Below, one piece after another: positions 1 through 53,875 of a stretch of DNA of 64,000 bases (the first letter of the stretch is position 1; every line of letters starts with the position of its first letter). Source of the DNA: Botryllus schlosseri (lineage: Eukaryota); contig CM119371.1 of assembly GCA_051294905.1 (NCBI GenBank), positions 14,882,001 through 14,946,000 of the forward strand, written 5' to 3'. The position numbers and the translations under genes were made by a program. Under the pieces are notes generated by a model that did no database searches, was not told the DNA's origin, and saw only the letters and a list, made by a program, of their open reading frames with translations.

Positions 1-419
1 GTATTGGAGGTCGGCGAGATGAAGTCGAAGTTTCTTTGTTCTGCAGATTCACTCCATCCTCATCAGAGTGGGTTGATCTCGAGCCAATGAGATATCCTGC
101 TGATAGCTGTGGTGTTGTTGCAGTTGATCAAAAGATATTTGTAACCGGTGGGTGGAGTGAAGAAGAGACCCTCGACAATGTAGAATGTTACGATGTCACT
201 TCAGCTCAATGGACTTCATTACCATCTATGAATGCATATCATGGTACCAATACTGGTTATCGCATCGGTAATTGGATTTTTGTAGTGGATGCATTCGGCG
301 ATTCTGATCTTGATGTGATTGAGAAGTACGATATATTGAACAAAAAATGGTACGGAATGAAAAAAGTCAATGAACTACTCTGTACCTGCGGATCTGTCAT
401 GGTGATGGAATATGGTTGA
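1..419 (+). CDS. Kelch-like gene copy A, 3' end only (last kelch blades); 5' part lies outside the window
   Basis: Open frame from position 3: IGGRRDEVEVSLFCRFTPSSSEWVDLEPM...TGGWSEEETLDNVECYD...EYG*. Collinear with the C-terminus of copy H. Intactness cannot be judged. Confidence 0.85.
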   Translation, partial: IGGRRDEVEVSLFCRFTPSSSEWVDLEPMRYPADSCGVVAVDQKIFVTGGWSEEETLDNVECYDVTSAQWTSLPSMNAYHGTNTGYRIGNWIFVVDAFGDSDLDVIEKYDILNKKWYGMKKVNELLCTCGSVMVMEYG

Positions 420-3400
420 AGGAGGACGCGGTATATTGTAAAGTGAAGTAAATACCTCTGTGAGTAGACTAATGTTCAAACATGCTTTGTTGAACTTGGA
501 ATAAGTCTCAGTTGTGCTGAAGCTTCAAAGTGATGTTTGACTGTGTTTGAGACGCCGTTTTATTGTAGTATGATCTAATTGTACATCTATTTGGAGACTG
601 CTGCTTTAAGTAAGAAAATAATTATTTGGCTATTAGATAATGACCATTCGTCGCTGCAGGTGATGGATCTGGCGTCTCTGATTATAGCCCAAGTTTTTTC
701 AACTATTTTACAGCTTCCGGCACTCTCCTAAATACTCAGAATTTATGTAGTATGATGTTTTAAGCTGTTTGAAGGAATTTTACATTGCAACTTTTTCTAT
801 TTTTCCATGCTACTTTTTACTCCAACTTTTATCAAGTATTGCGCAAAACGTAAAAGAGTGATTTCAAAAACATGCGATGAAACTATTTCCGGTATGGATC
901 TTTCTTCGAGCTATGTGATTGATTAGCTGCATCTCAATGTTGTCTATGACACAACGGCTTGTGAGCTAGCAGTTCAACAACCAGTGCTAAGCACGACAGT
1001 GCCTGAACTATATGTAAATAGATCGCTTGATTGATTCACCGTCATTTAAATTTGAGGTCTTTCCCCAATTGACAGACGCTCAGGCGAGACCGCCGAAAAT
1101 CACATAATCACCGGGTCACCTTTACAAGTTATTGCCAACACTGAGTTTCACTGCAATGCCTTGGACCATTTATCAGAGCCAGGGGGATCGGGATGTGGTA
1201 TTTGTGTTGTATGGGTTATCGCTTAGCTGTTTGGTTTTTTGCGGAAAACTATTCATGTTATTTTCGTGCTGCTTCTCCCGGCCTTGCGTGAAAAGGGAAA
1301 TTCGTCAGCTCCGCTGGAGCTGACAGCGAAAAGCTGTCATGTAGGTTACAAACCGAAAGAATATAAAAGTATGTGCATTTTCAGCTTATACTGCATGCTT
1401 AGCATGATTAGCTTATACTGGCATTATATACAGCAAATACGCGAGTTCATCAAAACAGTGAAGCTTCTCTGATCCATGTATGATAAGGATTCCGGCATGT
1501 ACTAATAAATGGATGCTACCATGGTAAATTTGAAGTGTTTTAAACATGTTTTTGATCCCTGTTCTTCCCGGCTAGGTAAACTCGTAATTTTGTCACCATA
1601 TACAAGCGACTAGGTTATTGGTGATATTAAACGCTTGCAAGACGGTGGAAAAGTAATTATTTAACATGTACACAGCTTGTTTATGAATTCTGCCACACTA
1701 TGACGTTACCTGTTTTTGACGTCATCGATCCCGCATTCCTATTGAAAATTAGCGTCTGACGCTTATGTCAAATGGTTACAAATTTTGAATTCGCAAGATG
1801 TATCCACACCACTAATGTAGAATGACCAATGACCAGGCATGTTTATTTTTGGCAAATGCCAAAAATACCAATACGGTACTGTAACAGCTTATTTTTCAGA
1901 TTTTGGAGTCTATGAAATCATGTTTGTAAACTTGAATTAACCATGTAAAACGCTTCAGTTTGGGTTTTCTTATCACACGACAGTCTGAAAACATGCAGTA
2001 TCCAATTTGCGCCATCACACAGCAAGATTAGGAACCGAATTAAAATGATATTGGAGAGCAAATTCATCCGATACAAAACGGACTGCTTCTGTGATACGTA
2101 ATATCAATGCATGCGAAATTACATCATTCACACAAGTCACTATACCACCTGTGGTAGTGATTCAAAAGGGTTTTTGAAACGTGTAGATCACAGCATTCAC
2201 TACGAAACGTATAGTTAGAAATCACGAGTGGCTTCAATACTAAATGTATTATGAGAAAATGTCCATCGGGCAAAGAAAAATTGATGAATGAGCTTGCCTT
2301 GATCACAGTTTTTGCTTATTGTACAAGTAATTCGACGCTGACAAAGTATTTTGAATTTTCCGTTTTCATGTCTTCATTCAGGTAGATGTTTTCTGTAACC
2401 TGTCAAAGAGGCTAATGTTGATGATTTTGTTCTAATCTTATAATTGACTAGCTTCTATTTATAAGTTTCATTGAATGTCTCTGCAATTTTCGAAAAATGT
2501 ATGAATGTGTTCCACTGTAGAATTATCAATCAATATATATATGGTTGGTTACCGGCAGTTATTTTGTCGATGTGAATGATTTGTATGTACTCTGACTTGA
2601 TTTTTGGTAATTTTGGCATCGCCTTGAAATCATGTTTGTAGACTTGAATTATCCATGTAAAACGCTTTAGTCTGGGTTTTATTATCTCACGTAAGTCTGA
2701 AAACGTGCGGTGTCCACTGCCATCACAAATCAAGATTACAAACCGAATTAACAATGATATTGGAGAGCAAATTCATCTGATACAAAACCGACTGCTTCTG
2801 CGATATCTAATCTCAATAGTTAATTCGGAAGCATGCAAAATTATTGCATTCACACAATTCACTATACCACTTGTGATAGTAATTCGAAAGGATTAGTTTG
2901 GATCACAGCATTCACTACCAAACGACTAGTTAGAAATCATGAACGTGGCTTCAATACCCGTGTATGATGGAAAAATTTCCATCGGGCAAAGAAAATCGAT
3001 GAATGAGCTTGCCTCGATCATATTTTTTGCTTATTGTACAGCTAATTCAAATGCATGGTAAACATTTAGTATTTTCATGTCCTAATTCAGGTAAATGTTT
3101 CGTATAATCAGTAAAAGAGGTTTTGTTTATGATTATTTTCCACCCTTGTAATTACCGTAACTGGCTTCTATTTGAAATTTTCATTGAATGTGTCTGCAAT
3201 TTTCGAAAAATGTGTGGTTAATGTATGCCACTGTGAAATTATCAATCCACATTAACGTGATGGTTACTGGCAGTTATCAATGCAAGTTATTTTGTGTGTT
3301 GATTTGTGTGTAGCCTACTTTGACTCTAATCATGTGTAGTTTTAAAACAGCACACTAGTCTTTAATATAGACATATCCTTGACAAGTGATTGTTGACCAA
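420..3400 (+). repeat. Repeated intergenic spacer of the array, with an internal ~700 bp tandem duplication (~1915-2590 vs ~2630-3320)
   Basis: Aligns by eye with 5637-5740 plus 9495-11830, with 40330-40885, and with 42198-42960. Confidence 0.85.
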
Positions 3401-3401
3401 T

Positions 3402-5006
3402 ATGCAGGTTGTTTGTCAGGATGTGGCGACGCATGCTGTGAGGATGCTCGAGGAATTACATCGAATGAAGCAAGATCATGATCATTGTGATTTCATAATC
3501 CAAGTCGGAGATGATGTCTATCGTACACACAAAAATGTATTGTCGGCTGGTTCCGCTTATTTTAGAGCCATGTTGAAGTATGATACGAAAGAGAGTCGCG
3601 ACAGAAAAGTCGTTTTGAAAGATGTGGATTCTTAGTGTGTGAAAAATTGCATCGATTTTATATATTCGGGTAAATTTGAGATTCCTGATGGAAGAATCAT
3701 TGAACTTCTTCACGTCGCAATTATGATGCAGCTGGATGATGTAAAGCAAGCCGTATCCAATATTTTGGAGGAATCAATCACCATTGTGAAATTACTTCTC
3801 TACCAGAAATGTTGGTGATTTTTACGGACTGGCGGATGTTTCTTCGAGATGCAGAATATTTTTACAAGAAAATATCATGGAAATCTCAGACCAAGCTGGA
3901 TTTGAAAGCATTGAAAAAGATGACCTTCTCAGTCTTTTGCAGTCAGGAAAACTGAAATTATGGGAAGAAGAAAAACTTGCATTATCGCTCAAATGGATCT
4001 AGAAATGTCAAAGTAAAAGCGAATATTTGCACGAATTTCTCAAAGTAATCAAGTTTGATCTAATATCCCCGGTATATTTGCAACAGATTTTAGAAACTCA
4101 CCCAGGTATAAGTAACGACTTCGACCTCTACAAGTTATTCAATGATCATATTATGGAATCTTCCGCTAAGAAAAAAGAAGATAATGACGCTGACAAATTG
4201 ATAATTCTTTTCGATGATGACGCAAAATGCCTCCGATCCTTGAATCCAATAACTGAGGAAATAGAAAAGTTCCATGATGTAACGTGTAGTTTATCGTTGA
4301 ATTCGACAGCAATTTCCCTTGACTCGTATATTTATGTATTTCGTGATTTTAGATCTGTTAATCGACTCAATTTTCAGACGAAAAATTCAAAATGGGAAAA
4401 AGTGGGTGATCTGATTTGCAACCATGGGAGGTCTCCATGCTCAGTGTGTTCAACTGGATCCATAATCGTTATTGGAGGAAGTAGTTTAACAGAAACAACT
4501 GATGTAGAAAGATTTGACCCATCGGTAAATCAATGGTTTCTACTAGGAAACAAACCGTCAGCCATTTCTAATGCAAGTCTCGTGTCTTTGGATGGTTCCA
4601 TCTATTGCATCGGAGGTTGGCGAAAGGGTGTCGAAGTTTCTTCGTTCTGCAGATTTACTCCATCCTTATCAGAGTGGGTTGATCTGGAACCCATGAGCAT
4701 CCTGCGGATTGCTGTTGTGTTGTTGCAGTTGATCAAATGATATTTGTGACCGGTGGGTGGAATGGAGAAAATACCACCGATGATGTGGAATGTTACGATG
4801 CTACTGCAGCTCAATGGACTACTTTGTCATCCATGATTTCATGTCATGGCGACAATACTGCTTATCGCATCGGCAATTGGATTTTTGTAGTGGATGTACT
4901 GGGAGAATCTGATGAGATTGAAAAGTACGATTTGTTGAACAAAAAATGGTGTAGGATGAAAGATAATGATACATTTTTCAGTGTCTCTGGATCTGCCATG
5001 GTGAAG
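3402..5006 (+). pseudogene. BTB-BACK-Kelch pseudogene copy B
   Basis: BTB motifs HCDFIIQVG and HKNVLSAGSAYFRAM. TAG at 3633-3635 (CAG in paralogs), frameshift ~3790, TAG at 4000-4002, frameshift ~4698. The normal stop is replaced by unrelated sequence after GSAMVK. Confidence 0.93.
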
Positions 5007-5489
5007 TGGGATGCTCTAACGTGGACTAAAACCCCCTGAACCCCCACCGTCAGAACTGCCAGATTGTTCTTTTGCACAACCTCTGTGTCAAAACTATGGC
5101 CATGTATTTTGGCGCTGGGAATGGTTCTATAAATTCAATGATTAATATCAATCTCGGGTTAATGGACATCAGAAAAGTGCAGATTCGGATATTGAAATGC
5201 TTTAAACAAAATGTGGTTTAGTATTCTTCAAAGTCCTATCTCGTACAAAATTATCCTTCCTACTGTAGTTCGCTGTGAAAACTTGGGTGATATAAGTAGC
5301 CTATTTTTAATACTGGAATTCGGATTATTATCAATTTCAACTCTATTCAAATGGAGCAAGTTTCGAGTCCAAGTCGAAGTTTGCTCTGGAATTGCTACCA
5401 TTTATCCATGCGGTCACAGGAATGACTTAAAGATCTTTTTTTTTTGGCGACCGCGCGATCGAGCTCGGCCATTTATTAATTTTGCTTCG

Positions 5490-5636
5490 GGCAATTTGAT
5501 TTTTGTAGTGGCTAGATTTAGAGGTTCCGATGTCATTGAGAAGTACGATTTATTGAACAAAAAATGGTATAGAATGAAAAAAGCTGATGAATTAATTAAT
5601 CTCTGTGGATCTGCGATGGTGAAGGAATATGGTTGA
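5490..5636 (+). pseudogene. Orphan 3' fragment of a kelch-like copy (last blade plus stop)
   Basis: GNLIFVVARFRGSDVIEKYDLLNKKWY...GSAMVKEYG*, followed by the same 3' flank (aggaggacgc...) as copies A and G. Confidence 0.85.
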
Positions 5637-6136: not shown

Positions 6137-7671
6137 CAGTGGTTCCCAACCTTTTCCATCTCGTGCCTCCCTTGGCCGGAATTTTAGCCAAAATTCCCCC
6201 CTTAGGATAAATCTGCCCGATGAATAAAAATGCTCATTTTTACCGCGCAAACACCTGTTGACTGTGAGAATAAGACGGGCGGTATCGAGTGTTTGTTTCT
6301 AGCAGTGCTGTAATAACACTTTGTAGAACTCCAAAAACCATGGTCTTGGTCCCAATCACACAAATTCTGGAAGGCTTGACTCAACAGACCCCCACACTTC
6401 CATTTGTGTTTCCGGCTTACCGTGCACCAATCGCTTATATAACTGCTGTGAAAAATCAGTATCCATAAATTTACTGGTCTCGCTTTTTTTTTCTCAAGTT
6501 TGCGTATGCATTTGGCCAACAATAGTGGTACTTTCATATATAGAAGAGTTGACCAGACTCGAGTTTGACTCGAGTCACCATTTTCTGATACCTAGACTTG
6601 ACTCGAGTCATTTTCTCAAAATACGGAAACGACTCGACTCGAGACAATCTGGGTATTGACTCGACTTGGACTCGAGTCATTGTGCATGACCCGAACCAAG
6701 TCATATGACTCAAAACTATAACACGGCCAAGACCGACATTTCATTGTAATTTCGAAGAACAGTAAAGTGACAACCCTGTTGGAATTTCGTCTATTGATCC
6801 TGGTACTTGACAATGTGACAAGAAACTGCTCAAAGTGAGGAAAATTAGTATGCCATAAATCCAAATCATTCAATATCACCAAACAGTGTTGACTTGAGTG
6901 GGACTTGGACTCGTACTCGAGTCATAATACCATGACTCGGACTCGACCGTCTGCTCGGTGACTTGGACTCGGACTTGACTCAATGGTGAATTGAAAATGA
7001 CTCGACTTGACTCGAGTCAAAACTATGAAAGTGAGATTGACTTGTGACTCGGAGCCTCATGACTGGGTTACAGCCCTGATATATAACATACACGTGATCA
7101 GATTCCCTGCTGGAGCGCATTGAAATTTAGGACACCCATTACGTTTTTGCAACATTGCACCAAGTTTACCACGTCTTTTTTCGATCGGGTAGCTGTCCAC
7201 TAAAAATAAAGCAAGGCTAGCGATCTCTTTGACTTGAATTGATGACGTTGGAATATTTAGTCACTGTCTGAAAATGTTGACTTGAAAATATAAGATAAAT
7301 ACTTTCACTAGAGGCCTTGTTGTGATAGATTCGGCACGACATTTACTCGCTTAGGATATATTTGATTGAGAAGCCGTCGCTGGCCTACAAAATTGTCTTG
7401 CGAACTGCAGCACATCTGAACTAGTTAGAAAGAAAAAAGGGGTTGGGGGGGATTTGTATATGAAAAAGAGATTTTAGATAGCATTTGAACATACTTTCAG
7501 CAGACAAAAAACAGCCATAAGGAGCATACGTTCGGATATATCTGGTTGTCTACATGACAGTTCGAACATGAACAATTTGGGAAATCCGTTACAATTCTAA
7601 AGTGGAATTCCTCCCTAAAAATTGCAAAATTCCCCCCAAGGGGGGAATTCCTCCCCGGTTGGGAACCACTG
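6137..7671. mobile_element. hAT Charlie/Buster-like MITE
   Basis: TIR cagtggttcccaacc / ggttgggaaccactg; perfect TSD gcgtaaga. Confidence 0.92.
6545..7078. mobile_element. GACTCGAGTC/GACTT-rich MITE nested in 6137-7671
   Basis: Dense gactcga/gacttga motifs; right end ttacagccctg; left end decayed (approximate). Similar to 38986-40320. Confidence 0.7.
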
Positions 7672-11246: not shown

Positions 11247-12596
11247 GAGAGAGAGAGCAAATTCCTCCAATACAAAACGGACTGCTTCTGTGATACGTAA
11301 TATCAATAGTTGATTTGCTACGCACACAATTCACTATACCACTTGTGCTAGTAATTAAAAAGGGATTTGGATGCATTTAGATCACAGCATTCACTACGAA
11401 ACAAATAGTTAGAAATCACAAGTGGTTTCAATACTCAACGCATTATGGAAAAATGTCTATAGAGCAACGAAAAATCTATCAATGATCTTGCCTCGGTCGT
11501 AGATTCGTAGTTCATTGTTGCTTATTGTACAGCTAACCCCATGCAGGCTAAATATTTGGTCTTTTCCGTATTCCTGTCTTCATTCAGGTAGATGTTTTCT
11601 ATAACAAGTAAAAGAGGTTAATGTTGATGATTTTGTTCCACCTTTTTAATTAACTGGCTGCAATGGGAAATGTTAATTGAATGTCTCTGCAATTTTCGAA
11701 AAATGTGTGGTTGTATTCAATTGTGAAATCATCAATCAATATTAAAGTACGGTAGTTTGTTACCGGCAGTTATCAATGCAGGTTATTTTGTCGATATGAA
11801 TGATTTGTGTGTATTTTGAAAACAGCACTTTGCTGATAAATTGGTAATTCTTTTTGATCGGTACAACAAATGCCCCCGGTCCTTAAATCCAATGAATGAA
11901 AAAGTAGGAAGATTTCATGATGCAAAGTTTGACTTCTGGTATTTCACAGCGATTTCCCTCAACTCATATATTTATGCCTTTTGTGGAGACAAATCTGTTC
12001 ATCGACTCAATTTCCGACAAAAAAATTCCAAATGGCAAAAATAGATGATATGATTTGCAAGCACGGGGATCTTCCTCGCTCTGTGTCATTGTGCGGAGCA
12101 ATATTTGTTATTGGAGGAAGTAGCACACAATCGAATGATGTGGAGAAATTTGACTACTCTGAAAATAGATGGTTTCAACTCCAAAACAAGCCTCTAGAGC
12201 AATTTGTAGAGCAAGTCTTGTATCATTGCACGATTCTGTGTATTGTGTCGGAGGTTGGCGAAATGGTTTTGAAGTTTCTTCCTTCTGCAGATTCACTCCA
12301 TCCTCGTCAGAGTGGGTTGACCTCGAGGCAATGCGATATCCCGTGTGTGGGTGTGGTGTTGTGGCATTGGTCAAAATATATTTGTGATCGGTGGGTGGAG
12401 TGGACGAAAGAAAGTCAATACCGTGGAATGTTACGATGTTACTTCATCTCAGTGGACTTCATTGCCATCTATGAATTCATGTCTTAGTTTCATTAAGCTT
12501 AATACATCGGCAATTGGATTTTTGTGGTGTTTGTGGTTGTGTTTAAGGTGCATAGTATAACAACTAGTATAACAACTGGCTGCTCTGCAACTTGAT

Positions 12597-13442
12597 ATGG
12601 ATCCAGAGATATCAAAGAAGCTGAAAGAAATAACCAAACAACTTGCAACTAAAATCGACAACAGCGAAAACCGTTTACTCAAGAAACTTGTGCAGGAACT
12701 AAAACCTCTGGTGGAGAGAAGCGTGGAAAACCATCTTGATTCTGCTATCTCCAAAAATCAAGACGAAGACACCAATGCCATCAGTTTGCTCCATGATAAG
12801 ATGGATCATATAATTCATCAAAAAAAAGAAACAGAAAATAGTCTATACGAAATAAAAGGATTTCAGGACACTTTGAAATCCAAACTGGAAGCCCAGGACA
12901 CTAGGCTGAAAGAATTGGAATCAAAAGTTGAAGCAATCACTCTGGACAATCAGAAACTGAGAGGACTACTCCACAGCAATCGCCAAATGATCGACCAACT
13001 CGAACAGAATCAGCGGAACGATTCCTTGGTGATCAGTGGATTACCTGAAAAAGAAAACGAAAATTTGCAAAAAGAAATAATTGATATCGGAGGAAGGATT
13101 GGACTGGATATCCAACCCAGTGACTTTGAGTGCTCTTACCGACTCAAACAATCGTCGAAAACTGCAGACAAACAAGCTCCATTGGCTCTCATAAAGTTCA
13201 GAAACTCCAAAACCAGATCACAACTCCTGCAAAAAAGAAAAGAACTTCGGAGCATCCACGATAACTTGCCTGGCTTTAAGAATCTCTACATCAATGAAAA
13301 CTTGACCAAGTTCAGAAGAGTGCTCCACTCAAAGACTCGCAAGCTGGGTAAATCTCTAGGATACAAGCACTGCTGGGTGGTCAATGGTAAAATTTTTCTC
13401 GGAACACAAAATCTATTTTCATCGATTCTTACGAAACCCTAG
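12597..13442 (+). CDS. LINE ORF1 (coiled coil plus RRM-like region)
   Basis: Heptad-rich N-half; motifs LEQNQRNDSLVISGLPE, YINENLT and WVVNGKIF typical of LINE ORF1 proteins; probable frameshift near the end. Confidence 0.85.
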   Translation: MDPEISKKLKEITKQLATKIDNSENRLLKKLVQELKPLVERSVENHLDSAISKNQDEDTNAISLLHDKMDHIIHQKKETENSLYEIKGFQDTLKSKLEAQDTRLKELESKVEAITLDNQKLRGLLHSNRQMIDQLEQNQRNDSLVISGLPEKENENLQKEIIDIGGRIGLDIQPSDFECSYRLKQSSKTADKQAPLALIKFRNSKTRSQLLQKRKELRSIHDNLPGFKNLYINENLTKFRRVLHSKTRKLGKSLGYKHCWVVNGKIFLGTQNLFSSILTKP

Positions 13443-13496
13443 AAAAGCTGCGTAACGACGCTTAAATCATTATTTTCTTGTCGAGCATTTATCTTT

Positions 13497-35796: not shown

Positions 35797-35867
35797 GTCT
35801 ATACTATATTTGTTATTACATTTGCTTTCACTGTGTTGCTGTAATCATAGCCATGCCGCAATCATTA

Positions 35868-38160
35868 GGCCCATTTACATGACGGTTTAAGTCAGCTTCG
35901 AAGCTGACTCGTCGATCCGACTATCTCGTATTTGATGAAGAGAGAAAGGCAAACTGCTTCAAGTCGACTCGAGCCTCAAGCCGTCGTGTAATGTGGTTTA
36001 CGATCGGCTTGAGTATTCGGCCATCGGCGTCCGACGATTTTCGTTCGACGGCGCTGGTTTTTGCCGCGCGGGCTCTTGGCATCGTAATTCATGTTTTTCA
36101 TGTGTTGTTGAGAAATTGGGCAAACATGGCAAGGAAAGGTGGGGTTACTTTGTAAGTGCTCGCTTGTTTACGATGGAATGCATGTAATAGGGGAGATGTG
36201 GTACCGATGGATCACTGGGACCGAAAATACTTTGAAAATTCTATATGATAATTCCATGATTACACTCCGTGAACTTGTCCACAATTGCTTGCTGGCAAAA
36301 TCTTTCCTCACATACAAAAAAATTCGACGTGCGCGAGCTATGGGGTCTCTCACAGATGTTTTTTGTTTTAGGGGTGTTAAGTAAATTTATATCGACATAT
36401 GCATTTTTCTTTGTAACCTTCAACACGAACAAACCAGCAATCATTTTTATTGTGAAGTGCAGGGCTTGTATCAGGCTATATAATGGCACCTATTATTTTT
36501 TTCAGTACTTTCCTTGAGTGGAATTTTTTTCGATTCATGTGTAAAATTCGTAGGGTGGGGACCGGTGATACAATAGCCAAATCAAGCAAAATAATCAAGC
36601 ATACTAATCATAAAACAAATGAAACATGCCTACGTACAGAAAATCTTTATGTAATAATTGCATATGATGTTTTATCGCTATAACGAGGTGTTTGGAAGTC
36701 ACATTGTCGATTTTCGGGCAATATGTATGTACCCTCAAATTTATAAGTCCGAGCCTAAATCGAAACGTGATTTTATGACAACATTTGAGTTAATATTTAT
36801 TCTATTTCTTGACGGTTGCGATCAAACATTCTTCTTTGGCTTACTGCAGCTTAGATTATAATGCTGAACAAGAAAAGTTGTCATATCTGAGGTATTTAGG
36901 GTATATGTGTCTTAGGTCCCCGGGTCGTGTGCCATTGGACCCACCGGGTGGGGACCGATGACACGTTCGAGCAACAAATTTTGAACGTCCAAAAATATTT
37001 TTTGAAAAAGACGGATTTCATGTATATGTGCGCGATAGCTAGAGCTTGTATCAAAGTGCTGAGCCAGGAAAAGACCTGCTGTTTTCGGCTGAACATCTTG
37101 GGGCCAGCGATCATTTTCCAATTTATGATCCATCGGTACCACATCTCCCCTACACCAGTACCGGTATAGCAACTGTGCTCTGTATTTCTACTTCTCAGAC
37201 TACAGATCGAAAGATATGTGGATTGTACCGGTATATACAATTCGACTACGACATGCATATGCATAGTAAACCGATTGAAGAAACGGCTGTGCAGTGTGCT
37301 ACATCGACACGGGAATACATGAATGATTGCTGCATTTCGTACATACTGTTCCACTGGCTAAACTGATGTGAGCGCGCGTGTGATGGGGGAGCTGGTGTCT
37401 CTCCCGTGAGGATGATATGGAGATTTGTGACTCTCCTGGTGATGATGAAGCGCAGCGGTGTTGGGATTATTGCTTTGTTTTTAGTTCTGGGTTATAGTGA
37501 TCTGCTGACAGTTTTTATAGACATTCTTGGTATTGTTTACTTCCTATTTGGTATCTCATGCCGACAAGATGCTTCAATTAAGTCTTTGCAGTAGTTGCTG
37601 TATCGTGATTCTTGATCGAGTCATCCGCATACATGGGGTAGTCTGTTACAGAGGAGCGGCCGAACATCTAGCTAGAGGCCGCATATGGGTTTTGCAAGTG
37701 GGTCACTTGAGTGGCGATGACCTTATATTAATCGCATCGACAAGTGATGCCTGAAATATCAATACAGTCGTTTCTCCCGCCTACTCCACGGCCCATCTTC
37801 GTTGACGCCGAAAAAGCTAGCTGATTACTTATAGGCTACTTATTGTTTTCCTTTACAATCATGACATGAACAAGAGTATTTTCCTCTACAAATATCGATA
37901 TTAAGAGTATCTCATCATCCTCGTTAATTTCGAGAATAAGAAACGTTTCAGAGTACGACCAAACACACATTGTCGTTGTACCTTAGCCCACCAGACACTA
38001 CGAAAATATTTGTAAGGGTTAAAGCGACACCCGGTCGTCCACGATACCGCTTCCTGAAGGATCATGTAAACGGGCCCTTTTACGAGTCAGCTCGGAGATG
38101 AGGCGTGACGTCACCGGAGACGACTTGAACGCCAAGTCGAGTCGAACATGTAACCAGGCC
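35868..38160. mobile_element. Possible PIF/Harbinger-like non-autonomous element
   Basis: Left end tta|ggcccatttacatg; right-end candidates catgtaaacgggcc (~38063-38076) and catgtaaccaggcc (to 38160). TSD imperfect. Confidence 0.5.
36190..37150. mobile_element. Tc1/mariner-pogo-type MITE
   Basis: Perfect 25-bp TIR ggggagatgtggtaccgatggatca flanked by TA on both sides. Confidence 0.9.
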
Positions 38161-38985
38161 TATTGATTTACTCGCTGGTTGACTAATAAATGAATTCTCT
38201 CTTTATCTCTATCTCCCTCTCTCACGCGCCCGACAATAAACAATAACATTGAGTAGGAGAACACGCTGCTAGCTGATGGTATCGAGTTGTAATGTTTATT
38301 CGACAGCCAATCGATGTTTATGGTGGCTTGTAGTAGTTTTTTTCTTGTATATATATTGGTCTTGCAGTAAAAGAAGCGATGAACGTACGGGCCGCGTGTC
38401 ACAATGTAGAACACTCTTTAGTGTGATATAGAGTCAACAGAGCTCACGGTCTACTTTCGTTTTATCCTATTTTAAGATGTTGCAAGTGTTATATACTAAA
38501 CTGTCTGAAAGCAAGCCTACAACTTGTTAACGACGTTTAGGACCAATAATATATGAAAACTAGACATATTTTTAGGCAAAATTTGACGAAATGTTTCGCT
38601 TTCATCACTATTTGAGAGTGAAGTAGATTATTTCAAAGTCAAATTTATTTAAGAAGAAATCCAGTTGTCCAAATCAAGTTGGTGGTGAATTAAATAGAAC
38701 TTGGCCTTGCAGAAACTTTAATAGAACAATGTGTAACAGGAAACTTCAGGGTTGACTTTGCAGGAGAACCACTAGTAGGCTTACCGCCTACGCATTGTTA
38801 GAAATTATTAGACTGCTTGTATTTTTACTTAGTTTTACATTGTATCAGTGATAGGCTATTTGAATATTTAAATGTTGTTGAATCAGTCTAATATTGAATA
38901 TGAACCCAGTCCGATGTGGTGTAGGCTGACATGTGAAAATTATTCATGGTTAATGTTCAATCTTTAGGCCTTCTACTCTAATAAT

Positions 38986-40320
38986 CAGGACTGTGGAGTC
39001 ATGACTCCATTCGAGTGGCAAATTTTTAGTGACTCGACTTAACTCGAGTCATTTTCTCAAGAGATGGAAAATGACGCGACTCAACCTGAGTCAATCTGTG
39101 CATTGACTCGACGTGTACTCGAGTCATTGCACATGCCTCGGACCAAGTCATATGACTCGAGTCTCGAACGGCCAATACTGACATTACCGCACCATTGCTA
39201 TTTTGTCTACTAGTACTGGTAAATGAGATTGCGACCAGAAACAGTTAAGAGTGTTGAAAACTTGTATATATACCAAGCCATATTACCGTAATTTTCCATG
39301 TATAATCCGCAAAATTTTCACGATTTTTTGCCCTAAAATCGGGGAGTGCGTATTATACATGGGAACAACACGCTTGAAAAAAATCTCCCTCGATAAAAAA
39401 CTTGAAATCACACCTTTCTTCATGTTTGTTTCCAATCGCCCATCACTTTCAGCCATCGTGCCCAGTAATTCGTATTATCAGTGTAACCACTACCAATTAG
39501 CAAAAAGCGTGTTGCCAATTAATGAGAGTCGTCTGCACAGCACGCAATCTCCTGCCGAGTTGGTTTGCCGTTTGCGCTCGAGCGAAATTAGGTCATTCAT
39601 TGATTGCTGAACGTGCGCGCGGCAATCCTCGCTGATTCATCGACAGGCAATGTGCGCAAAATATAATCGCTTGCGTAATCAGTCGCACCTCCAACAGGCG
39701 TGGTGTGCACGACATAACCGTTGGCCTGAGCAATCGCATCTGACTTCGTGCGCAAGATGTCGCGTCGCAGGCTTTGGCTGCTATCTACTATCGTACAGAG
39801 ACAATACCGTTACTTGTATAATGATTAGCAATCGCATCTGTAATAGGCCTCGTGCGCAAGACCTCGCGTCGCTGGCGCGAACTATCGCGTTGCCAGCCTT
39901 GCAGGCTTTGGCTGCTCTGTACTATCGTTTAGAGACAATGCCGTTAATTGCATAATGATTAGCAATGGTTATGTCATGATTGTTCGCCAGTGACATCGCA
40001 AAACAGAACAACATCGCGTACTAAAACACAGCTATTCATGTACTGTGAATGCAGGGTGAGTACTATACATGGGTACAGGCTTTTTTCCAGAATTTGCATG
40101 CCATTTTAAGGGTGCGTATTATACATGGGGGCGTACTATACTTGGAAATTTACGGTACTCGAGACTCAAGACGGCCAAAACCGGCATTTCCTTGTGATTT
40201 CGAGGAGAAGTCAAGTAACCACACTCTTGGGATTTCGTCTATTGGTACTGGTACTTGAAAATGCGACCAGAAACTGCTAAACGTAAGGAAAATTAGTATA
40301 TTATAAATTCGAACGATTCG
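38986..40320. mobile_element. GACTCGAGTC-family MITE remnant hosting a nested element
   Basis: Left end caggactgtg; segments match 6580-6880; right boundary approximate. Confidence 0.65.
39286..40155. mobile_element. Tc1/mariner-pogo-type MITE
   Basis: TIR ccgtaattttccatgtata / tatacttggaaatttacgg with TA TSD. Removing it restores a host motif similar to ccaagtcatatgactcgag at ~39143. Confidence 0.85.
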
Positions 40321-40885
40321 ATATCACCAAACAATTATAAAACTTACGGCATTTACACAATTCACTATACCACTTGTGATAATATTTCGAAAGGGTTAAT
40401 GAAACGTTTGGATCACAGCATCCACTACCAAACGAATAGTTAGAAATCACAAACGTAGCTTCAATACTCAATGTATTATGGGAAAATGTCCATCGGTCAA
40501 AGAAAAATGGAAGAATGATCTTGCCTCGATCATAGTTTATGCTTCTTCTACAGCTAGGTAACTCAACCCTTGCTATAAGTATTTTTTGTTTTCTGTTTTC
40601 ATTTCGTCATTCAGGTAGATGTTTTCTGTAACCAGTCGAAGAGGCTAATGTTGATGCTTTTGTTCTACTCTTAGAATTGACTGACTTCTATTTGAAAGTT
40701 TCGAAAATGTGTGATTGTATTCCACTGAAATTATCAATATTAACGTAGGTGGTTACCGGCAGTTATTAGTGCAGGTTATTTTGTCGATATGAATGATTTG
40801 TGTGTACTTTGACTCTAACCATGTGTATTTTAAAAACAGCACTATAATCTATAGAAATATCCTTGACAAGTTATTGGTTACCATT

Positions 40886-42197
40886 ATGCAGGTTGTTTGT
40901 CAAGATGTGGCAAGGCATGCTGTGAGGATGCTCGAGGAATTACATCGAATGAAGCAAGATGATGATCATTGTGATTTCATCATACAAGTCGGAGATGATG
41001 TCTATCGTACACACAAAAATGCATTGTCGGCTGGTTCCGCTTATTTTAGAGCCATGTTGAAATATGACACAAAAGAGAGTCGCGACAGAAAAGTTGTTTT
41101 GAAAGATGTGGATTCTCAGTGTGTGAAAAATTGCATCGATTTCATATATTCGGGTAAATTTGAGATTCCTGATGGAAGAATCATTGAACTTCTTCACGTT
41201 GCAATGATGATGCAGCTGGATGACGTAAAGCAAGCCGTATCCAATGCTTTGGAGGAATCAATCACCATTGAAACTGACCCACGTCTAAGTAACGACTTCG
41301 AGCTGTACAAATTGTTCAATGATCATATTATGAAAGCCTCCGTTAAGGCAAAAGAAGATAATGACGCTGAGAAAATGATAATTCTTTTTGATGATGCCGC
41401 AGAATGCCTCCAATCCTTTAATCCAATAACCGAGGAAATAGAAAAGTTCCATGATGCGGAGTTGCATTTCTCGTTGCATTTCACAGCTATTTCCCTTGAC
41501 TCATATATTTATGTCTTTTCTGAATCTAAATCTTTTCATCGACTCAATTTCCAGAGAAAAAATTCAAAATGGGAAAAGATGGATGATATGATTTATGACC
41601 ATGGTATGTCTCCAAGCTCGGTTTATTTAACTGGATCCATAATCGTTATTGGAGGAAGTGGTTATGCAGAAAAAGCTGACGTCGAAAGATTTGACCCATC
41701 TGTAAATCAATGGTTTCTACTTCGAAACAAACCATCAGCAATTTCTGATGCAACTCTCGTGTCATTGGATGGTTCCATCTATTGTATTGGAGGTTGGCGA
41801 GATGGTGTCGAAGTTTCTTCATTCTGCAGATTCACTCCATCCTCATCAGAGTGGGTTGATCTCGAGCCAATGATATATCATGCTGATAGCTGTGGTGTTG
41901 TTGCAGTTGATCAAAAGATATTTGTAACCGGTGGGTATAGTAAAGAAGATACTGTCAACAATGGTAGAATGTTACGATGTTACTTCGGCTCAATGGACTT
42001 CATTGCCATCTATGAATTCATGTCATGGCAACAATACTGCTTATCGCATCGGTAATTTGATTTATGTATTGGATGCTTTTGGCGGTCCTGATGTGATTTA
42101 GAAGTACGATTTATTGAACAAAAAATGGTAAAGAATGAAAGAAGCCGATAATCCAATCTATATCTGCGGATCTGTCATGGTGAAGGAGTATGGTTGA
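40886..42197 (+). pseudogene. BTB-Kelch copy G with an in-frame deletion of BACK
   Basis: EESITI joins ETDPRLSND at ~41270 (~100 codons missing). +1 frameshift at ~41963; TAG at 42099-42101. Confidence 0.9.
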
Positions 42198-42364
42198 AGG
42201 AGGACGCGGTATATTGTAAAGTGAACTAAATACCTATGTGAGTAGACTAATGTTTAAACATGCTCTGTTGAACTTGGAATAAGTCTCAGATCTGCTGAAG
42301 CTTCAAAGAGATGTTTCATTGTGTTTGAAACGCCGTTTTGTTGTAGTATGATCTGGTTGTACCT

Positions 42365-42722
42365 TAGAGGTGTAAAAAAAAACCTTTTTTTCATATTTCA
42401 TCGGCTTAATTGTCAAATCGCCAGGTTACCTAAAAAACATCGCACATCAAATTTGACTCAATTCCAACCAGTAGAAGCAGAGGTCAGTAAAATTGAAATT
42501 TCGGTCATTTTTGAAATAATAGTATTCACGATGACCAATTTCATCACACCGACATGACCAAAAATCGTGTTCTAGGTATACCTGAAGAGGCAGGGATGTC
42601 TTTTCCACTTGCTTTGATCTTGTCAAGGTCCTATGGTGGAGTTTGGGTGAAGACATCGCCAATAAACGAAAAAAAGATATGACACGGATTAGCTGGAACG
42701 GAAGTTTTTTTGAACACCCCTG
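42365..42722. mobile_element. hAT-type MITE in the 3' flank of copy G
   Basis: TIR tagaggtgtaaaaaaaaac / gtttttttgaacacccctg; TSD ttgtacct/ttgtacac. Empty site seen at ~579-590 after copy A. Confidence 0.75.
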
Positions 42723-43012
42723 TTGTACACATCTATTTGGAGACTGCTTCTTTGAGTGATAAACTTATTATTTGTTGATTAGATAATGACCATTCGTCTT
42801 TGCATCTGATGGATCTGGCGTCTCTGATTATAGAGCAAATTTTTGCAACTTTTTTTTTACAGCTTCCGCTAGCTTTCTAAATACTCAGAATTTATGTAGT
42901 ATGATGTTTTAAGCTGTTTGAAGGAATTTTACATTGCAACTTTCTCTTTTTTTTCATGCTACTTCAGTTCTTGTTCTAGTTTCGGATTTCAGAAAGTTGG
43001 TAGTTTTAGTAT

Positions 43013-43198
43013 TCATCTATGAATTTTTGTTGTTGTTTTAATACTGCTTATCACATTGGCAGCCGTATTTTTGTATTGGATAAGTCTCACTCGTTTGACA
43101 TTAAAAAGTACAATTTATTGAACAAAAAATGGTATGGCAGGAAAAATGAATCAGGTGCAGTTTTCTACATCAGCGGATCTGCAATTGTGAAGCTATAA
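43013..43198 (+). pseudogene. Orphan 3' fragment of a kelch-like copy
   Basis: SSMNFCCCFNTAYHIGSRIFVLDK...DIKKYNLLNKKWY...GSAIVKL*. Confidence 0.85.
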
Positions 43199-43807
43199 AC
43201 TGTCCCTTCAATTGAATGCCTCACGAATCTTAGCAGGAGAAGAGGTATTTTAATAGGCCTACAGCTCAAAACCTCCGAGAATACTGTGTAAACATGTATT
43301 CTTGAACTTTGAATAAGTGGTTATTATTCATATTAGAAACACGGTAGTAACGTTATTCATTGCGATTGTGTATCAATTATATGACAGATCAACGAGATCA
43401 CCGTACAGCTCCCTTGAGTGAGAAAATTGTTGATTGTTTTAATGACACATTTTAGAGTATCATTTAAATTATTTGAATGACCGAAATGAAGTTTTTTTCA
43501 GGTGACACTTTGTCGCATTTTATTTGAATCAATCGAATCCAACCTTAAACCCCAACTGTATTTTACATCTAGCCTGAGGTGGCCAAAATGGAAAAGGTGA
43601 GTAGTTTTGCCGACAATCTGTTCAAGTATAAGCAGTCCATAACATGATCACTCGAGTAAGTAATGCATAAAGACGAAACCTACTCTAGTACTAGAAAAAA
43701 ATTGCAGTACTTCGTTACTGACCATCTCTGGCTATATGTTCTTTAAGCTGAATAGCCAACATTATTATGAGCATATCAGCCACAATTCGAATGTGCTTTA
43801 CCATATC

Positions 43808-45853
43808 TTATCGGTAGTTTCCAATTATTGCCTACCGGTACTTGATTCCCCGTTGGGTACGCACTGTCAGCGTATGTAGTTCTGTTAGTATGTGATCAGT
43901 TGTCTGTTGCTTAAGGTGTTGTGTCTTTCGTTGTCGAATTTGAACTGTACGTATTGTGTATTTCATTTCTGTCCTGTTACAGAATTAGGTGAATAAAGCC
44001 TATTCCTAGGTCCGAACAATTTATTAAACTTATCCGATATTCATGATTATGACCTTGCCATTGGTGATTTGAAAGAGATAAATGTGAAGCAGAAGAACAC
44101 CATTGCGGACTGGCATGAATTACTGACTTGAAAACAACTGCCTGGCGAGGCTATGGACAGTTCTGTCATTCGACTGCAAAGACTGCGGGCGGGTGCTGGG
44201 CAGTTTCAGCTGAACACTCTTGGAGGTGATTTACGATGCCTTGATTGCAAGATTGCAATCGGCACCAATTCGCCAGAGACTTGTGGAAGAAAGCGCGTTG
44301 ACTTTCGGTGATGCCTACTAGAAGGCGCACACAATGGAAATCACTTCTAGGGATTCCGAAACTTAGCAAATTACTTCATCATGTGTCACAAGTATGCATG
44401 CGCGGAGACGACAAGGTGGGGATGAAACCCAGAATTAAGGTGGGAGCTCTCATCGAAAACCGACGTTTTCGAAGCGGATTTGTTTGTTTTGTGCAGATTC
44501 TATGCATCCTCGTGAATTGCCTGGCAAGAGATGCCGTACACTGATATTGTCAGATCACTGGCCACATTACTGGAAGTTATGTCAATATCGCCTACGAAAT
44601 CTTCCGCGTATCAATACGGTAAGCGCCTCAATACATGGCCCTGTATATCCTAGCACATGAGAAATAGAATTTGACCCGCGAACAACTGTATCAGCTACGG
44701 ATCGGTCAGAATGCAATGTTGAGGTTGTCAATTTGAACCTTCTTCATTGATGGATACTGGTCCTGGGGAATGTTTCATGTATCAACAATTTGGTGACAAA
44801 TATGGAGAAAAATTGAACATCCAGCCAATCGTTGGCGAGACTTCTATATGTGTGCCGATTGAAGGTTAATGCCTTGCTCGACACACCATGGGGAGTAACG
44901 ACCATCGAAATGTTTCATTCCACATACTGAAGAACTTTGGGACTGACGTCATCATCGACGAAAGAATATTCAAGGAACACAAAAGAGTCACATTCACGTT
45001 TTCGGGACCACGGACTCCGCTCACTCTTACCTTATCAAAATAGGCAGTTCCGTATCCGAAACCGTTCATAGTCACTTTGGCCAAGATACTCGCCCAGAAG
45101 CGGACAAGCTACGGAGGTACTTGCAGTCAGATCTCCCTTCATCGCAGAAGAAACGCAACGTCTGCTTGCTGACAATCTTATCGAGCCAAGTAATTCGCCT
45201 TGGAGAGCTCAGGTAGCTACTTGTTGTCAGAAACAAACATTCTACCAATCGACGAATGGTCACTGGTCAGTGAATACTGCTGGAGAATTGACCAAATCAC
45301 TCAACTTGACACCTATCCTCTGTGCCACGCATCTAGTATATTGTGAATAAGCTTGCTCGACAAATGGCGCCTCCATTCCGTCATAGTTGAAGCTTGAGAC
45401 CATGTCCTATTTACGTCAAGCGACATGAAGGATGAGCCCTTGGTGGACGATGCGGAGCTTCTCAAACCATACCCTGCTTACGCCCATGTCCGACTTAACG
45501 TCGGCAGATAAACTATGGTATCGGTTCGGGATATGTCAACACGCAGTAACACCGACGAAACTGGCGGAGCAGAATTTGGTAACTACAGCGAAGATTGTTC
45601 GGGTGGACAACTCCCTAGCAAATACGCCGCCATTCGTAATGACGCCATTGCCACCAGCACCGAGGACGGAAATAACGAAAATACGAACATTGAGCCTGAA
45701 AGACCACCGTTTCGTCTTTCAACGCGTGCTCGGAAGGCAGCAGATCAATACGACGCAGTATGTATCTATTATTGACAACGTATCACACCCCCGTAATTGG
45801 TTCCTGTTGAGTACGCACACCCAACGTATGTAGTCCTTTTAGTATGTGATCAG
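43808..45853 (+). mobile_element. Gypsy LTR-retrotransposon remnant 2 (5' LTR ~43808-44018, gag, protease, RT start, integrase tail, partial 3' LTR)
   Basis: LTR core gtacgca...cgtatgtagt...ttagtatgtgatcag at both ends; AATAAA then ...CA. Gag QSAPIRQRLVE and zinc-knuckle relic; protease LMDTG (~44750); IEPSNSPWRAQV. Confidence 0.85.
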
Positions 45854-46629
45854 AAGGGCGATTTTTCGTTACCTGAAAACGATATATTTTGAGCTGGTAG
45901 GAACATGTGCTTTCAATTTCAACTATTTTGGAATAACCTGAGCAAAAAGCGGATGAGATATCTCAATCCACTGTCGATTCTGTTGTGTTCGTGAATTCTT
46001 GTGAATTTACTTTCTATAACTCTTTTATAACTTGATGCTTATTTCATGTTAAAGTTTATTGCTTGACTGTCTTGTATTATCTGTCATGTGTCAATTGTGT
46101 CATTCATCTTTATGAGCAGTTTTTTGGCGATGAACCATTTTTCACACTCGTACACCTTCTTCAATTCAATGGTGTTGTCTCACTGCGTTCCTCTTCCTAA
46201 ATTGCAGGTCCAAATTTTGTTTCATTTCTATTCGTTTTCTCACAGGAATTGAAACTAGCGATATTCTAGTGTAAAACCGTGTCCCAGCTCCGCTGTATGA
46301 TTTGAAACAGAATTTTTAGATTGTTGGACAAGATTCTCCTGATTCGAATGGATTGATTGTTCGACAGTTTCATATGCTCAAAAATCAGATCCCGCTTAAC
46401 ACGGAAACATGAGCATACGGAGATGTCATAGGTCAACTTTCATAACCGATTGGCTTTATTAGTCTTCGTTTTTCCAACATATGGATGATTGCCCAATGCC
46501 CATCTTATAGCAGTAGCTGGTCTGTCGTTAAGCCATGTTAATAACTGTAATTAGCCGAAGATATCGACAGTACCCTACTCTGAAATTTTTTGATTTTGAC
46601 ATGGCACCCTGGTAAATGAGTGTCTACAG

Positions 46630-47447
46630 CAGGGGTCACCAACACGCGGCCCGCGAGGTCATTTTTTGCGGCCCGCGACTTGATTTGAGATTTCGGAAGA
46701 AAGCTAAGAAAACATTTTGAAATGCTGAAATTGACGTTCAATGGCCCAAACACTCCCACGACCAAGACGCTTAGAAAATGGCTTAGGGCAGTGGCTCTGA
46801 AACCTCCCTTGTGGGGGCGCGAAAGTATCTGAACGGGTCGTGAAGCTGCGGTCAACTGAAAAATTTTTCGCGCTCCACGCGATTTACGTCGGATCTGTGG
46901 TTACAGTTATTGGTCTGCTGTATATAATCCGGAATTCATATTATAAAATTCTCTCATTAACATTCATAACCTTCCATGCCACCTAACTATCTGTTGGGAT
47001 TGTAAGTATTATGGATGCATTTTGTGATATGACGATAAGGGGCGTGAAATTTTTCAGTATCATAAAGGGGGCATGTCTAAACAGGTTTAAGAACCACTGG
47101 CTTCGGGCATCCGCACACGATCAAGCTTTACGTGGAGATGGTCTATCAGCTAGTAATGTATCTCGCTAGCCCCCAGAAGCGTTTCCAGGTATCTTGCACA
47201 GCTCAGAGTTTAAGATAAAATGAAATTGATGACAGTGATCCTTTGTTGTATTTTTATTCCTTTGATAAAATATCACTTCTTTTGTCGTCATTACACCCTT
47301 CGCCTATGTTCGGTAGCACAGCGTTGTACTGACGTAGAGTTTTAAAACGTGGTTGCCTACTTGATATCGATAGTAAATTCATGCGGCCCGCGGCCGCTTG
47401 GAAATTTGAAAAGTGGCCCGCGACCCGTTTTGAGTTGGCGACCCCTG
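46630..47447. mobile_element. hAT Charlie/Buster-like MITE with nested MITE 46789-47099, upstream of copy H
   Basis: TIR caggggtcaccaac / gttggcgacccctg; perfect TSD gtctacag. Inner TSD gcttaggg/gcttcggg. Confidence 0.9.
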
Positions 47448-47748
47448 GTCTACAGTGTCTATCTGCTTTCACCAAGCTCCCTGAAGTTGGTTTTTACTGC
47501 AAATCTTGACATTTTGATTAGCACTCAGAAGTCAGTTTTGACCATTTTCTTGTCCATTCATTGGCTCTATGCTACATGCATCACTATATCGTAATGTTCC
47601 AGTTGATATGTACTGTACAGTTCATATTGATTTGGCCTATTCTGACTCATTTCATGGGATACGTGTGATTATTCATGTTTACTGCCAAAACAGATTATGT
47701 CTTCAATTCTCTTTTATACAGCATATGCTTAATTAGTGACCAGCGATT

Positions 47749-49350
47749 ATGGTGCGAATGGTATGTTTGGATGCAGAAAAGCATGGAGCATCTATGATGG
47801 CTGAATTACATCAAATGAAGCAAGATAACGATCATTGTGATTTCATAATTCAAGTCGGAGATGATGTCTATCCTACCCACAAAAATGTATTGTCGGCTGG
47901 TTCCGCATATTTTAGAGCGATGCTGAAACACGACACAAAAGAGAGTTGCGAAGGAAGAGTCGTTTTAAAAGATGTGGATTCAGAATGTGTCAAAAGTTGC
48001 ATTGATGTTATATATTCGAGTAAATTTGAGATTCCAGATGGAAAAACCATTGAACTTCTTCACGTCGCAATTATGATGCAGTTGGAAGATGTGAGAGATG
48101 CAATATCCGATATTTTGGCAGAATCAATTACTGTTGAGAATTACTTCTCTACAAGAAATGCTGGTGATATTTATGGACTGGTTGATGTCACATCAGGATG
48201 TAGAATATTTTTACAAGAAAATAGCATGGAAATCGCAAATGAGGCTGGATTTGGAAGCGTTGAAAAAAGTGACTTCTTAACTCTCTTGAAGTCGGCAAAA
48301 TCAAAGTTATGGGAAGAAGATAAATTAGTTTTAACGCTCAAGTGGATCGAAAGATGTGGAAAGAAAGAAAATTTGTATGAATGTCTAGAATTGATTGAAT
48401 TAGTCGAAATCTCTCCTGTGTTTTTGCAAGAACTTCTGGAAACTCACTCCATTTTCAAGCGCGATTCCAAGTTGCATGATTTGATCAGGAGCCATATTCG
48501 GAAAGCATCAGTTGAACTGGTAAAAAAGAAGGAAATGATAATCCTTTTTGACAAGGATACCGATTGTATTCGATCCTTTAATCCCATTTCTGAGAAAATA
48601 ACCAAGTTTCACGATGCAAAGTTTCGGCATTTCGATTGTTTTGAAACAATTGTTCTCCACCAGTATATTTACGTTTTATGTCAGAATAAATCTGTTCACC
48701 GGCTCAATTTTAAGAGAAAAAATTCAAATTGGCAAAAGATGGAAGACATGATACTTGACCACGGGCGGTTCCCTTGCTCAGTGACATTGTCAGGATCCAT
48801 ATTTGTCATCGGAGGCAGTATTGACAAAGAATCAAACGGTGTTGAAAGATTTGACCCCTCTGTAAATAAATGGATTCAACTGCAAAAAAGGCCTACAGCA
48901 ATTTGTGATGCAAGCCTTGTATCACTGGATGATTCCATTTATTGTATAGGAGGCTGGCGAGATGATGTCGAAGTTTCTTCATTCTGTAGATTCACTCCAT
49001 CCTTGTCACAGTGGGTTGATCTTGAACCAATGGGATATACTGTGTGTAACTGTGGTGTTGTTGCAATTGATCAAAATATATTTGTGATTGGTGGGTCGAC
49101 TTACGATTCTAGCATAGATATTGTTAAATGTTACGATGTCACCTCGGCTCAGTGGACTTCATTGCCATCTATGACTTATGGAAGTTGCAACACAGCTTAT
49201 CACATCGGCAACTGGATTTATATAATGGAAGATTACAGCGAATCTTATTACATTGGGAAGTACGATTTGATAAACAGAAAATGGCATAGAGTGGATGGCG
49301 GTGCAGATCAATATTTTCTACTTCACGGATCTGCAATGGTGAAGGTATAG
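47749..49350 (+). CDS. Intact kelch-like protein (BTB-BACK-Kelch, 533 aa), copy H; putative Cullin-3 substrate adaptor
   Basis: Single uninterrupted ORF: BTB (HCDFIIQVG, HKNVLSAGSAYFRAM), BACK (ITVENYF...LKW), kelch repeats (IFVIGG...VERFDP...W). No one-to-one KLHL orthologue is recognisable by eye. Confidence 0.95.
   Translation: MVRMVCLDAEKHGASMMAELHQMKQDNDHCDFIIQVGDDVYPTHKNVLSAGSAYFRAMLKHDTKESCEGRVVLKDVDSECVKSCIDVIYSSKFEIPDGKTIELLHVAIMMQLEDVRDAISDILAESITVENYFSTRNAGDIYGLVDVTSGCRIFLQENSMEIANEAGFGSVEKSDFLTLLKSAKSKLWEEDKLVLTLKWIERCGKKENLYECLELIELVEISPVFLQELLETHSIFKRDSKLHDLIRSHIRKASVELVKKKEMIILFDKDTDCIRSFNPISEKITKFHDAKFRHFDCFETIVLHQYIYVLCQNKSVHRLNFKRKNSNWQKMEDMILDHGRFPCSVTLSGSIFVIGGSIDKESNGVERFDPSVNKWIQLQKRPTAICDASLVSLDDSIYCIGGWRDDVEVSSFCRFTPSLSQWVDLEPMGYTVCNCGVVAIDQNIFVIGGSTYDSSIDIVKCYDVTSAQWTSLPSMTYGSCNTAYHIGNWIYIMEDYSESYYIGKYDLINRKWHRVDGGADQYFLLHGSAMVKV

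Positions 49351-53871: not shown

Positions 53872-53875
<4 letters not shown>

Follow-up and report, generated by a model that had tools for sequence, protein, structure and literature searches.

A stretch of 64,000 nucleotides from Botryllus schlosseri (assembly GCA_051294905.1, contig CM119371.1, positions 14,882,001 to 14,946,000 of the forward strand), called the window throughout, carries a birth-and-death tandem cluster of single-exon BTB-BACK-Kelch genes, one of which is intact here. Probably these genes belong to a family of Cul3-type adaptors, the proteins that bring targets to a Cullin-3 ubiquitin ligase, with diversifying selection acting on the substrate pocket, and our verdict is that they form a kelch-based member of the class of ligase-adaptor families that are unstable and under positive selection. 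The reading that we prefer goes further, holding that these tandem adaptors are born and die in turn and that their positively selected loop sites are likely chasing foreign proteins inside the cell, and we give it about equal measures of belief and doubt.

Layout of the cluster

The search of the 64-kb window by tblastn with the protein of the intact copy (H), by blastn and by an nhmmer profile located 15 kelch profile matches with E at or below 3.7e-15, every one of them on the + strand and within positions 1 to 49349, and beyond 49350 tblastn and nhmmer found no kelch sequence save two noise matches (E 0.38 and 0.45); by tblastn the genuine pieces reach 42-670 bits, and no match in 20 shuffled windows rose above 26.9 bits. 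The pieces resolve into eight co-oriented BTB-BACK-Kelch copies, A to H, alongside five fragments (B2, E0, F0, G2 and the 5' remnant that starts its codons at 20101), and kelch coding DNA takes up 10,847 of the 49,350 bases. The coding sequences are collinear and without introns, their two big interruptions being a long interspersed element (LINE) in C and an inverted-end element between F0 and F. An earlier note on this DNA, made from the letters alone, had counted eight co-oriented copies and at least four fragments in 49 kb, all with intronless coding sequences and with a single provably intact copy, and all of this is borne out, with the fragments now five. Its description of the copies as gene-sized is right overall, with the refinements that C is kelch-only and that of A the last 138 codons are visible.

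Copy H (47749-49350, + strand, as are all the copies and fragments that follow) is an intact single-exon open reading frame of 533 amino acids, with BTB at residues 21-125, BACK at 135-230 and a six-blade kelch propeller at 262-533, and it is the sole complete frame of the cluster, of which it also forms the right end. A pyrimidine tract ending in AG (47700-47721, + strand), 27 nt upstream of H's ATG, is a possible acceptor of a 5'-UTR (5' untranslated region) intron. At the other end, which is open at the window edge, copy A is cut, and its 3' part (blades 4-6, 1-419) has no lesion in the codons seen. A frameshift-aware alignment shows the six copies B to G to be disrupted, through stops, deletions and mobile elements, and one copy is intact among the seven lying wholly inside the window.

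Copy B (3402-5009) is a full-length pseudogene with stops at 3633 and 4000 and frameshifts near 3789 and 4696, and it is followed by fragment B2 (5490-5630), the last ~46 codons of a copy with a 3' flank of the A/G type. Copy C is a kelch-only remnant (11825-12545) with four frameshifts, its BTB-BACK part being absent behind a B-type upstream flank, and its 3' tail (16797-16882) runs on in frame into the BTB of copy D, the two having been fused by a deletion at a short stretch of shared sequence. Copy D itself (16883-18396) is a pseudogene that has lost its first ~29 codons and has a frameshift near 17187. A 212-codon chance frame (16560-17195) runs here from the LINE 3' end through the C tail into the BTB of D, a kelch-tail/BTB fusion by inter-copy deletion. 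Further on lie the remnant of an H-type copy (19866-20140), with 5' flank and about 12 codons from 20101, and fragment E0 (24635-24753), the first ~40 codons of a copy. Copy E (24879-26504) is of full length and has a single lesion, a TGA at 25473 replacing the conserved Trp199. Fragment F0 (27859-28041) holds the first 61 codons and is nearest E (synonymous divergence, dS, 0.22 vs 0.46-0.64 to the others), and copy F (30516-31812) is a pseudogene that starts at codon 72, the first 71 being absent, with stops at 30570 and 31605 and a ~110-nt deletion at 31632. Copy G (40883-42190), another pseudogene, has a ~300-nt deletion near 41270 that takes most of BACK, a frameshift near 41960 and stops at 42099 and 42129, and fragment G2 (43013-43198) consists of the last ~60 codons and the 3' flank.

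Domains and predicted fold of protein H

The Pfam profiles place BTB (PF00651) at residues 21-125 of H with E 1.3e-19 and BACK (PF07707) at 29.2 bits against a cut-off of 20.9, with Kelch_1 also above its cut-off. H is predicted to fold as a BTB domain, a 3-box/BACK region and a six-blade propeller, given that the AlphaFold2 model (72-row alignment; pLDDT 94.5, pTM 0.67) has a BTB, 3-box helices at 132-142 and 145-157, a BACK and six blades of four strands each, with the C-terminal strand closing the propeller. Foldseek ranked the KBTBD2-CUL3 structure first for this model (8h36, E 2.5e-31), followed by KLHL22-CUL3, KBTBD4, KLHL12 and KEAP1, with a TM score of 0.81-0.83 over the kelch domain of KLHL12; sequence identity to the nearest solved KLHL/KBTBD proteins is about 20%. 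Of the 72 aligned proteins, at least 90% retain Glu65, a residue of the loop that lines up with KEAP1's alpha3-beta4 region. Passages of PMC3597819 assign the shaping of the substrate pocket to the DA and BC loops, and Cul3 binding to the BTB together with the 3-box.

A single clade apart from the named KLHL proteins

The nearest named relatives are Styela clava "kelch-like" proteins (automatic names), 27-33% identical; three Logan proteins are closer to H, at 52, 45 and 42% identity, and a protein search with copy D gave P0002 as its sole match. From these neighbours we take the host to be a stolidobranch ascidian. We built a tree of 79 proteins, comprising seven window copies (A was omitted), nine Styela proteins, six named canonical KLHLs and 57 other search hits of similar length, so that its references are search hits and the vertebrate and Ciona KLHL reference sets lie outside it. 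The seven window copies form one clade (support 0.994), with P0002 as sister (1.0), nested in a group (1.0) that holds nine of the nine Styela proteins and leaves the six named canonical KLHLs outside. This result answers the possibility, raised with the earlier note, that the copies are separate conserved KLHL orthologues (IPP, diablo, KLHL1 and others), against which a single window clade apart from the canonical proteins speaks within this set of search hits. Members of the wider clade lack GG in blades 1-2; in the window copies blade 6 is without this motif as well. Among the Styela clava proteins, P0041, P0042/P0170 and P0062 are divergent members of the same clade that are all listed with a longest contig of 20,344,166, a hint of a Styela cluster, and P0005, P0006, P0007 and P0039 are recent paralogues.

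Selection on the coding sequence

The one-ratio model of the eight sequences, with a log-likelihood (lnL) of -7206.17 that was reproduced against IQ-TREE, gave an overall ratio of nonsynonymous to synonymous rates (dN/dS) of 0.39. With site classes drawn from the strands of the model (DSSP boundaries) by the DA/BC rule, and fixed after the top-ranked sites had been seen, dN/dS rose from 0.19-0.20 in the BTB, 0.25 in the propeller strands and 0.33 in the bottom loops to 0.40 in BACK plus linker and 0.81 in the top loops. Top and bottom loops differ with p 7e-10, and they still do (0.69 vs 0.34, p 7e-6) once 75 gap-adjacent columns are masked.

A class of sites above 1 was found by comparing the site models M8 and M8a, with twice the log-likelihood difference (2dlnL) at 32.2 and a class dN/dS of 2.6 at 9.7% of sites; across analyses, about 8-10% of sites fall in a class with dN/dS 2.2-2.6. 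The 2dlnL was 17.3 after masking and 20.0 and 12.9 with block-specific trees (five blocks), the drop-out tests gave p < 0.01 in nine of nine, and the 17 null simulations peaked at 6.5. Of the 24 sites with a posterior above 0.8, 20 lie within the 112 top-face positions (p 3e-11). Separately, H residues 177, 194, 247 and 251, in BACK and the linker, have masked posteriors of 0.79-0.89 for dN/dS > 1 and are perhaps a second variable surface.

Along the terminal branches that lead to B, C, D, E, F and H, dN/dS is 0.30-0.54, each below 1 (p <= 0.017), and therefore most of the dead copies were functional through most of their history and were lost late.

Duplication and decay of the copies

The copies share flanking DNA on both sides, 84% identical over 1.5 kb upstream of B and C and 92% downstream of A and G, and no poly(A) tail was found at them, the longest A-run being 5-9 in 700 nt, and therefore we conclude that they arose by tandem DNA duplication. 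Retroposition of each copy, of the Tdpoz type, is rejected on the same shared 5' and 3' flanks and missing A-tails. Fragment F0 and copy F are probably two different copies joined around the insertion that separates them, given that F0 is E-like and F is nearer B, D and G. Pairwise divergence between copies is 10-30%, and what disrupts them are nonsense substitutions, large deletions and inserted mobile elements, for the most part away from homopolymers.

Sequencing reads and expression

Reads from 4 of the 24 listed runs were compared over 30301-50300, which leaves copies A-E outside. Run X2, which may be the source sample, holds exact pieces, for example 30918-31189 with 0 differences. Run X5, which has another organism label, holds a 1648-nt contig ~95% identical to F that has 111 nt where F of the window has its deletion, and whose last 58 letters do not match the end of the insertion; the F lesions would therefore be recent or variable, the F stops being unreadable in that contig. 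No read spanning the whole array was seen among the runs compared, nor, in the reads compared, any spliced read at the possible acceptor before H, any H splice joint or any transcript end. Summed contig depth was rejected as a gauge of copy number, since overlap of short contigs inflates the sums, and the values in X2 (~1100-1340 over G and the H BTB vs 5.7 in the unique bin) and in X5 (25-34 vs pieces at 2-4) are thus no copy-number measure.

In the bulk RNA run X24, of which 6% was read, depth was 0.9-4.4 in the F, G and H coding bins vs 0-0.12 over six bins spanning 38305-38971 and 42974-46308, with 31635-32301 at 0.42, and this is at most low transcription of the gene family, not of H itself. 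Five runs labelled "RNA?" that contained 13-16% of H's words were counted as no evidence.

Comparison with known adaptor families

The vertebrate KLHL/KBTBD adaptors of Cul3 (KBTBD2 8h36, KLHL22 8khp, KLHL12 2vpj, KEAP1 and KLHL11) have the same architecture and fold of BTB, 3-box/BACK and six blades. In contrast with them, the window copies are ~20% identical, keep GG in blades 3-5 only, have a single coding exon, and stand in an unstable tandem array with a positively selected pocket; none of the named KLHLs in the tree is a one-to-one orthologue of theirs. The Styela clava kelch-like proteins (XP_039264566.1, XP_039256126.1 and XP_077975123.1) belong to the same wider clade and share the degenerate blades 1-2, but differ in keeping the blade-6 GG that the window copies have lost. 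In Ciona, the relevant passages of a survey (PMC7517041) list 32 Klhl genes, with local duplications (Klhl9/13) and a tunicate-specific Klhl5L, and these passages mention neither a selection analysis nor a pseudogene array.

A likeness in evolutionary behaviour is found in the F-box and MATH-BTB families of nematodes and plants, which are described in part of PMC8665587 as having, like the window family, lineage-specific birth and death, a conserved cullin side and a positively selected substrate part; C. elegans has 300-500 F-box genes according to a passage of PMC12919956. The window family shows the lineage-specific tandem expansion with pseudogenes that is typical of such families, and also their conserved cullin-side part and selected substrate part, the latter at a minority of sites among 8 sequences. 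It differs from them in that its module is a kelch propeller, its host a chordate, and its cluster small and mostly dead. Thomas (2006) reportedly drew attention to these unstable F-box and MATH-BTB adaptor families.

The anatomy of the window also recalls the Tdpoz genes of rat and mouse, intronless SPOP-type retrocopies with about 300 hits in the rat, mostly in one 2.5-Mb cluster, which have added non-coding 5' exons and are transcribed in testis, egg and embryo (passages of PMC2724483). Tdpoz/Rtdpoz and the window share an intronless coding exon, a tandem cluster, full and truncated copies and a Cul3-type adaptor, and differ in that Tdpoz proteins are MATH-BTB with known testis/embryo expression, whereas the window has BTB-Kelch copies made by DNA duplication with their flanks. 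Intronless clusters of the Cul3 type can therefore be testis/embryo genes, since the rodent Tdpoz are such.

Poxvirus BTB-Kelch proteins are intronless immune modulators, and two Atlas clusters of them ("OPG047" and "KBTB1") resemble the window protein in length and in domain set (feature score 0.96-0.97), which is a lead only. A viral origin is rejected, given that the nearest sequences come from ascidians and that animal LINEs and duplications with shared flanks mark the locus.

Function and rival explanations

If the family works as its relatives do, the BTB would dimerise and, with the 3-box, dock Cul3-Rbx1, and the DA/BC loops of the top face would bind the target, which would then be ubiquitinated. 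The BTB and 3-box would be held by the constraint of the ligase, and the pocket would be reshaped by fast-changing targets, such as those of pathogens or parasites. Each paralogue would have had its own pocket, copies would have been gained by tandem duplication, and a copy would have been lost once its target vanished or escaped. That the targets are foreign proteins could just as well be right as wrong in our estimate, and an immune role is plausible but unproven. The earlier note had suggested that this may be a repertoire for recognition or defence, and this is partly supported, by the BTB-BACK-Kelch identity and fold, the one lineage-specific clade, the birth and death of copies, the constrained BTB, the positive selection on the DA/BC loops of the top face, and a sign of F lesions differing between samples. 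The cluster on its own, by contrast, is no working repertoire, because it is mostly dead, with one intact copy in seven. More speculatively, and with more doubt than trust on our part, styelid-type sea squirts might run an inherited intracellular kelch-on-Cullin-3 repertoire that tags proteins of pathogens, parasites or non-self cells, its clusters turning over fast enough for individuals or sibling lineages to differ, and the window would then be a collapsing cluster and F a presence/absence allele.

Several observations weigh against adaptors that chase foreign proteins. By class, the BC loops (dN/dS 0.88-0.92) are not different from 1 and the DA loops (0.50-0.75) are below it, and therefore the signal of positive selection rests on a minority of sites, as obtained from 8 sequences of which 6 are pseudogenes, with naive empirical Bayes posteriors and with site models that do not include multi-nucleotide (clustered) mutation. 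Recombination was signalled in three of four PHI-type tests (p 0.002-0.048), and a free-ratio model brought no gain over one ratio (p 0.35), the G and A branches being near 1 and not different from it. The GG motif is retained in blades 3-5 only, so that three blades are canonical by sequence and the pocket departs from that of canonical KLHLs. As for expression, 3050 of the 3098 placed reads of X24 fit partly only, with both directions about equal, and the bulk RNA run X21 had no reads over F, G and H. Even for nematode F-box genes, the evidence for foreign targets is called "still scarce" in a passage of PMC12919956.

The same biochemistry could also serve germline or early-embryo adaptors, Tdpoz-like, directed at sperm-egg proteins, selfish elements or allogeneic cell parasites, which we find unlikely and take seriously. 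The single coding exon and the possible 5'-UTR acceptor are Tdpoz-like anatomy, the low signal in two bulk RNA runs fits narrow expression, and a Botryllus contig annotated as Kelch-like 10, whose membership of the window family is not established, is ~224-fold up in fertile colonies according to a passage of PMC4523013; the pattern of selection, for its part, does not separate this alternative from the immune reading. Another alternative is relaxed constraint without any arms race, in which a region prone to duplication gave rise to redundant copies with drifting exposed loops and the class above 1 comes from recombination, misalignment or clustered mutation. Six dead copies out of the seven wholly inside the window, top loops at or below 1 and the detected recombination would all suit such a history, but neutral decay cannot yield a class above 1, the M8 result holds up under masking, with block trees and in the drop-out tests and lies above every one of the 17 null simulations, the bottom loops remain at 0.33, and the dead copies show long purifying selection, all of which makes relaxation improbable to us.

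We consider it very improbable that the proteins act as scaffolds of kelch type or as dominant-negative decoys, without recruiting Cul3: their ~20% identity to solved KLHL/KBTBD proteins and the blades 1, 2 and 6 without GG would allow it, but the BTB is the most constrained part (0.19-0.20), Glu65 is kept and the 3-box helices are predicted. An assembly artefact, made of false duplication and of sequencing errors read as stops and frameshifts, which the earlier note had named as a danger, is hardly credible, and we reject it on the divergence of the copies and the types of their lesions, to which the exact pieces in X2 (subject to X2 perhaps being the source) can be added; the region is repeat-rich, and the lack of an array-spanning read among those compared is what such an artefact would have in its favour.

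The preferred reading, of tandem adaptors with loop sites selected by foreign proteins, touches an old question, since the foreign-target idea for unstable ligase-adaptor families is described in part of PMC12919956 as long-standing and thinly supported. A chordate case on a structurally well-understood kelch scaffold makes this idea testable, with mapped pocket residues, a single-exon intact gene and possible natural null alleles as handles; the cluster alone, with one intact gene, is a modest one. We found no report of a tunicate birth-and-death BTB-Kelch family under positive selection in our searches of the main texts of open-access papers, and the term search of the Botryllus genome paper (PMC12448946), which covered its main text, gave zero mentions of kelch or BTB.

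Mobile elements and other features of the window

The interruption in blade 6 of copy C (12546-16796, + strand) is a decayed non-LTR retrotransposon of the LINE type, 4.25 kb long and near full length (RVT_1, E 4.7e-20). Its ORF1 (12597-13439) has a coiled coil and a faint FP-like match, and its ORF2 (13443-16428) is a broken endonuclease-reverse transcriptase followed by a (CTGT)n 3' tail; no clear target-site duplication was found at this LINE, and its closest relatives, among the best 120, are ~43% identical. The 2.5-kb insertion between F0 and F (28042-30515, no strand assigned) has ~460-bp inverted ends (28056-28515 and 30021-30480) that are 83% identical, and it is likely a DNA transposon relic, although no Pfam family reached threshold in it, including its short decayed frames at 29426-29901 (minus strand).

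To the right of H, the long frames scanned in 49351-64000 gave no Pfam family, and neither Rfam families nor tRNAs were found in the window. Two shared non-coding or decayed repeats (20834-22392 and 44946-45888), 77-86% identical, lie upstream of E and H, and their frames of 134-182 codons have no Pfam family. A high-copy repeat with very high summed contig depth occurs at 34586-35560 and 51058-52231 as inverted copies that contain ~360-bp duplications, and short tandem repeats with a palindromic GACTCGAGTC core are found at 56696-57640, 6550-7085 and 38985-39185.

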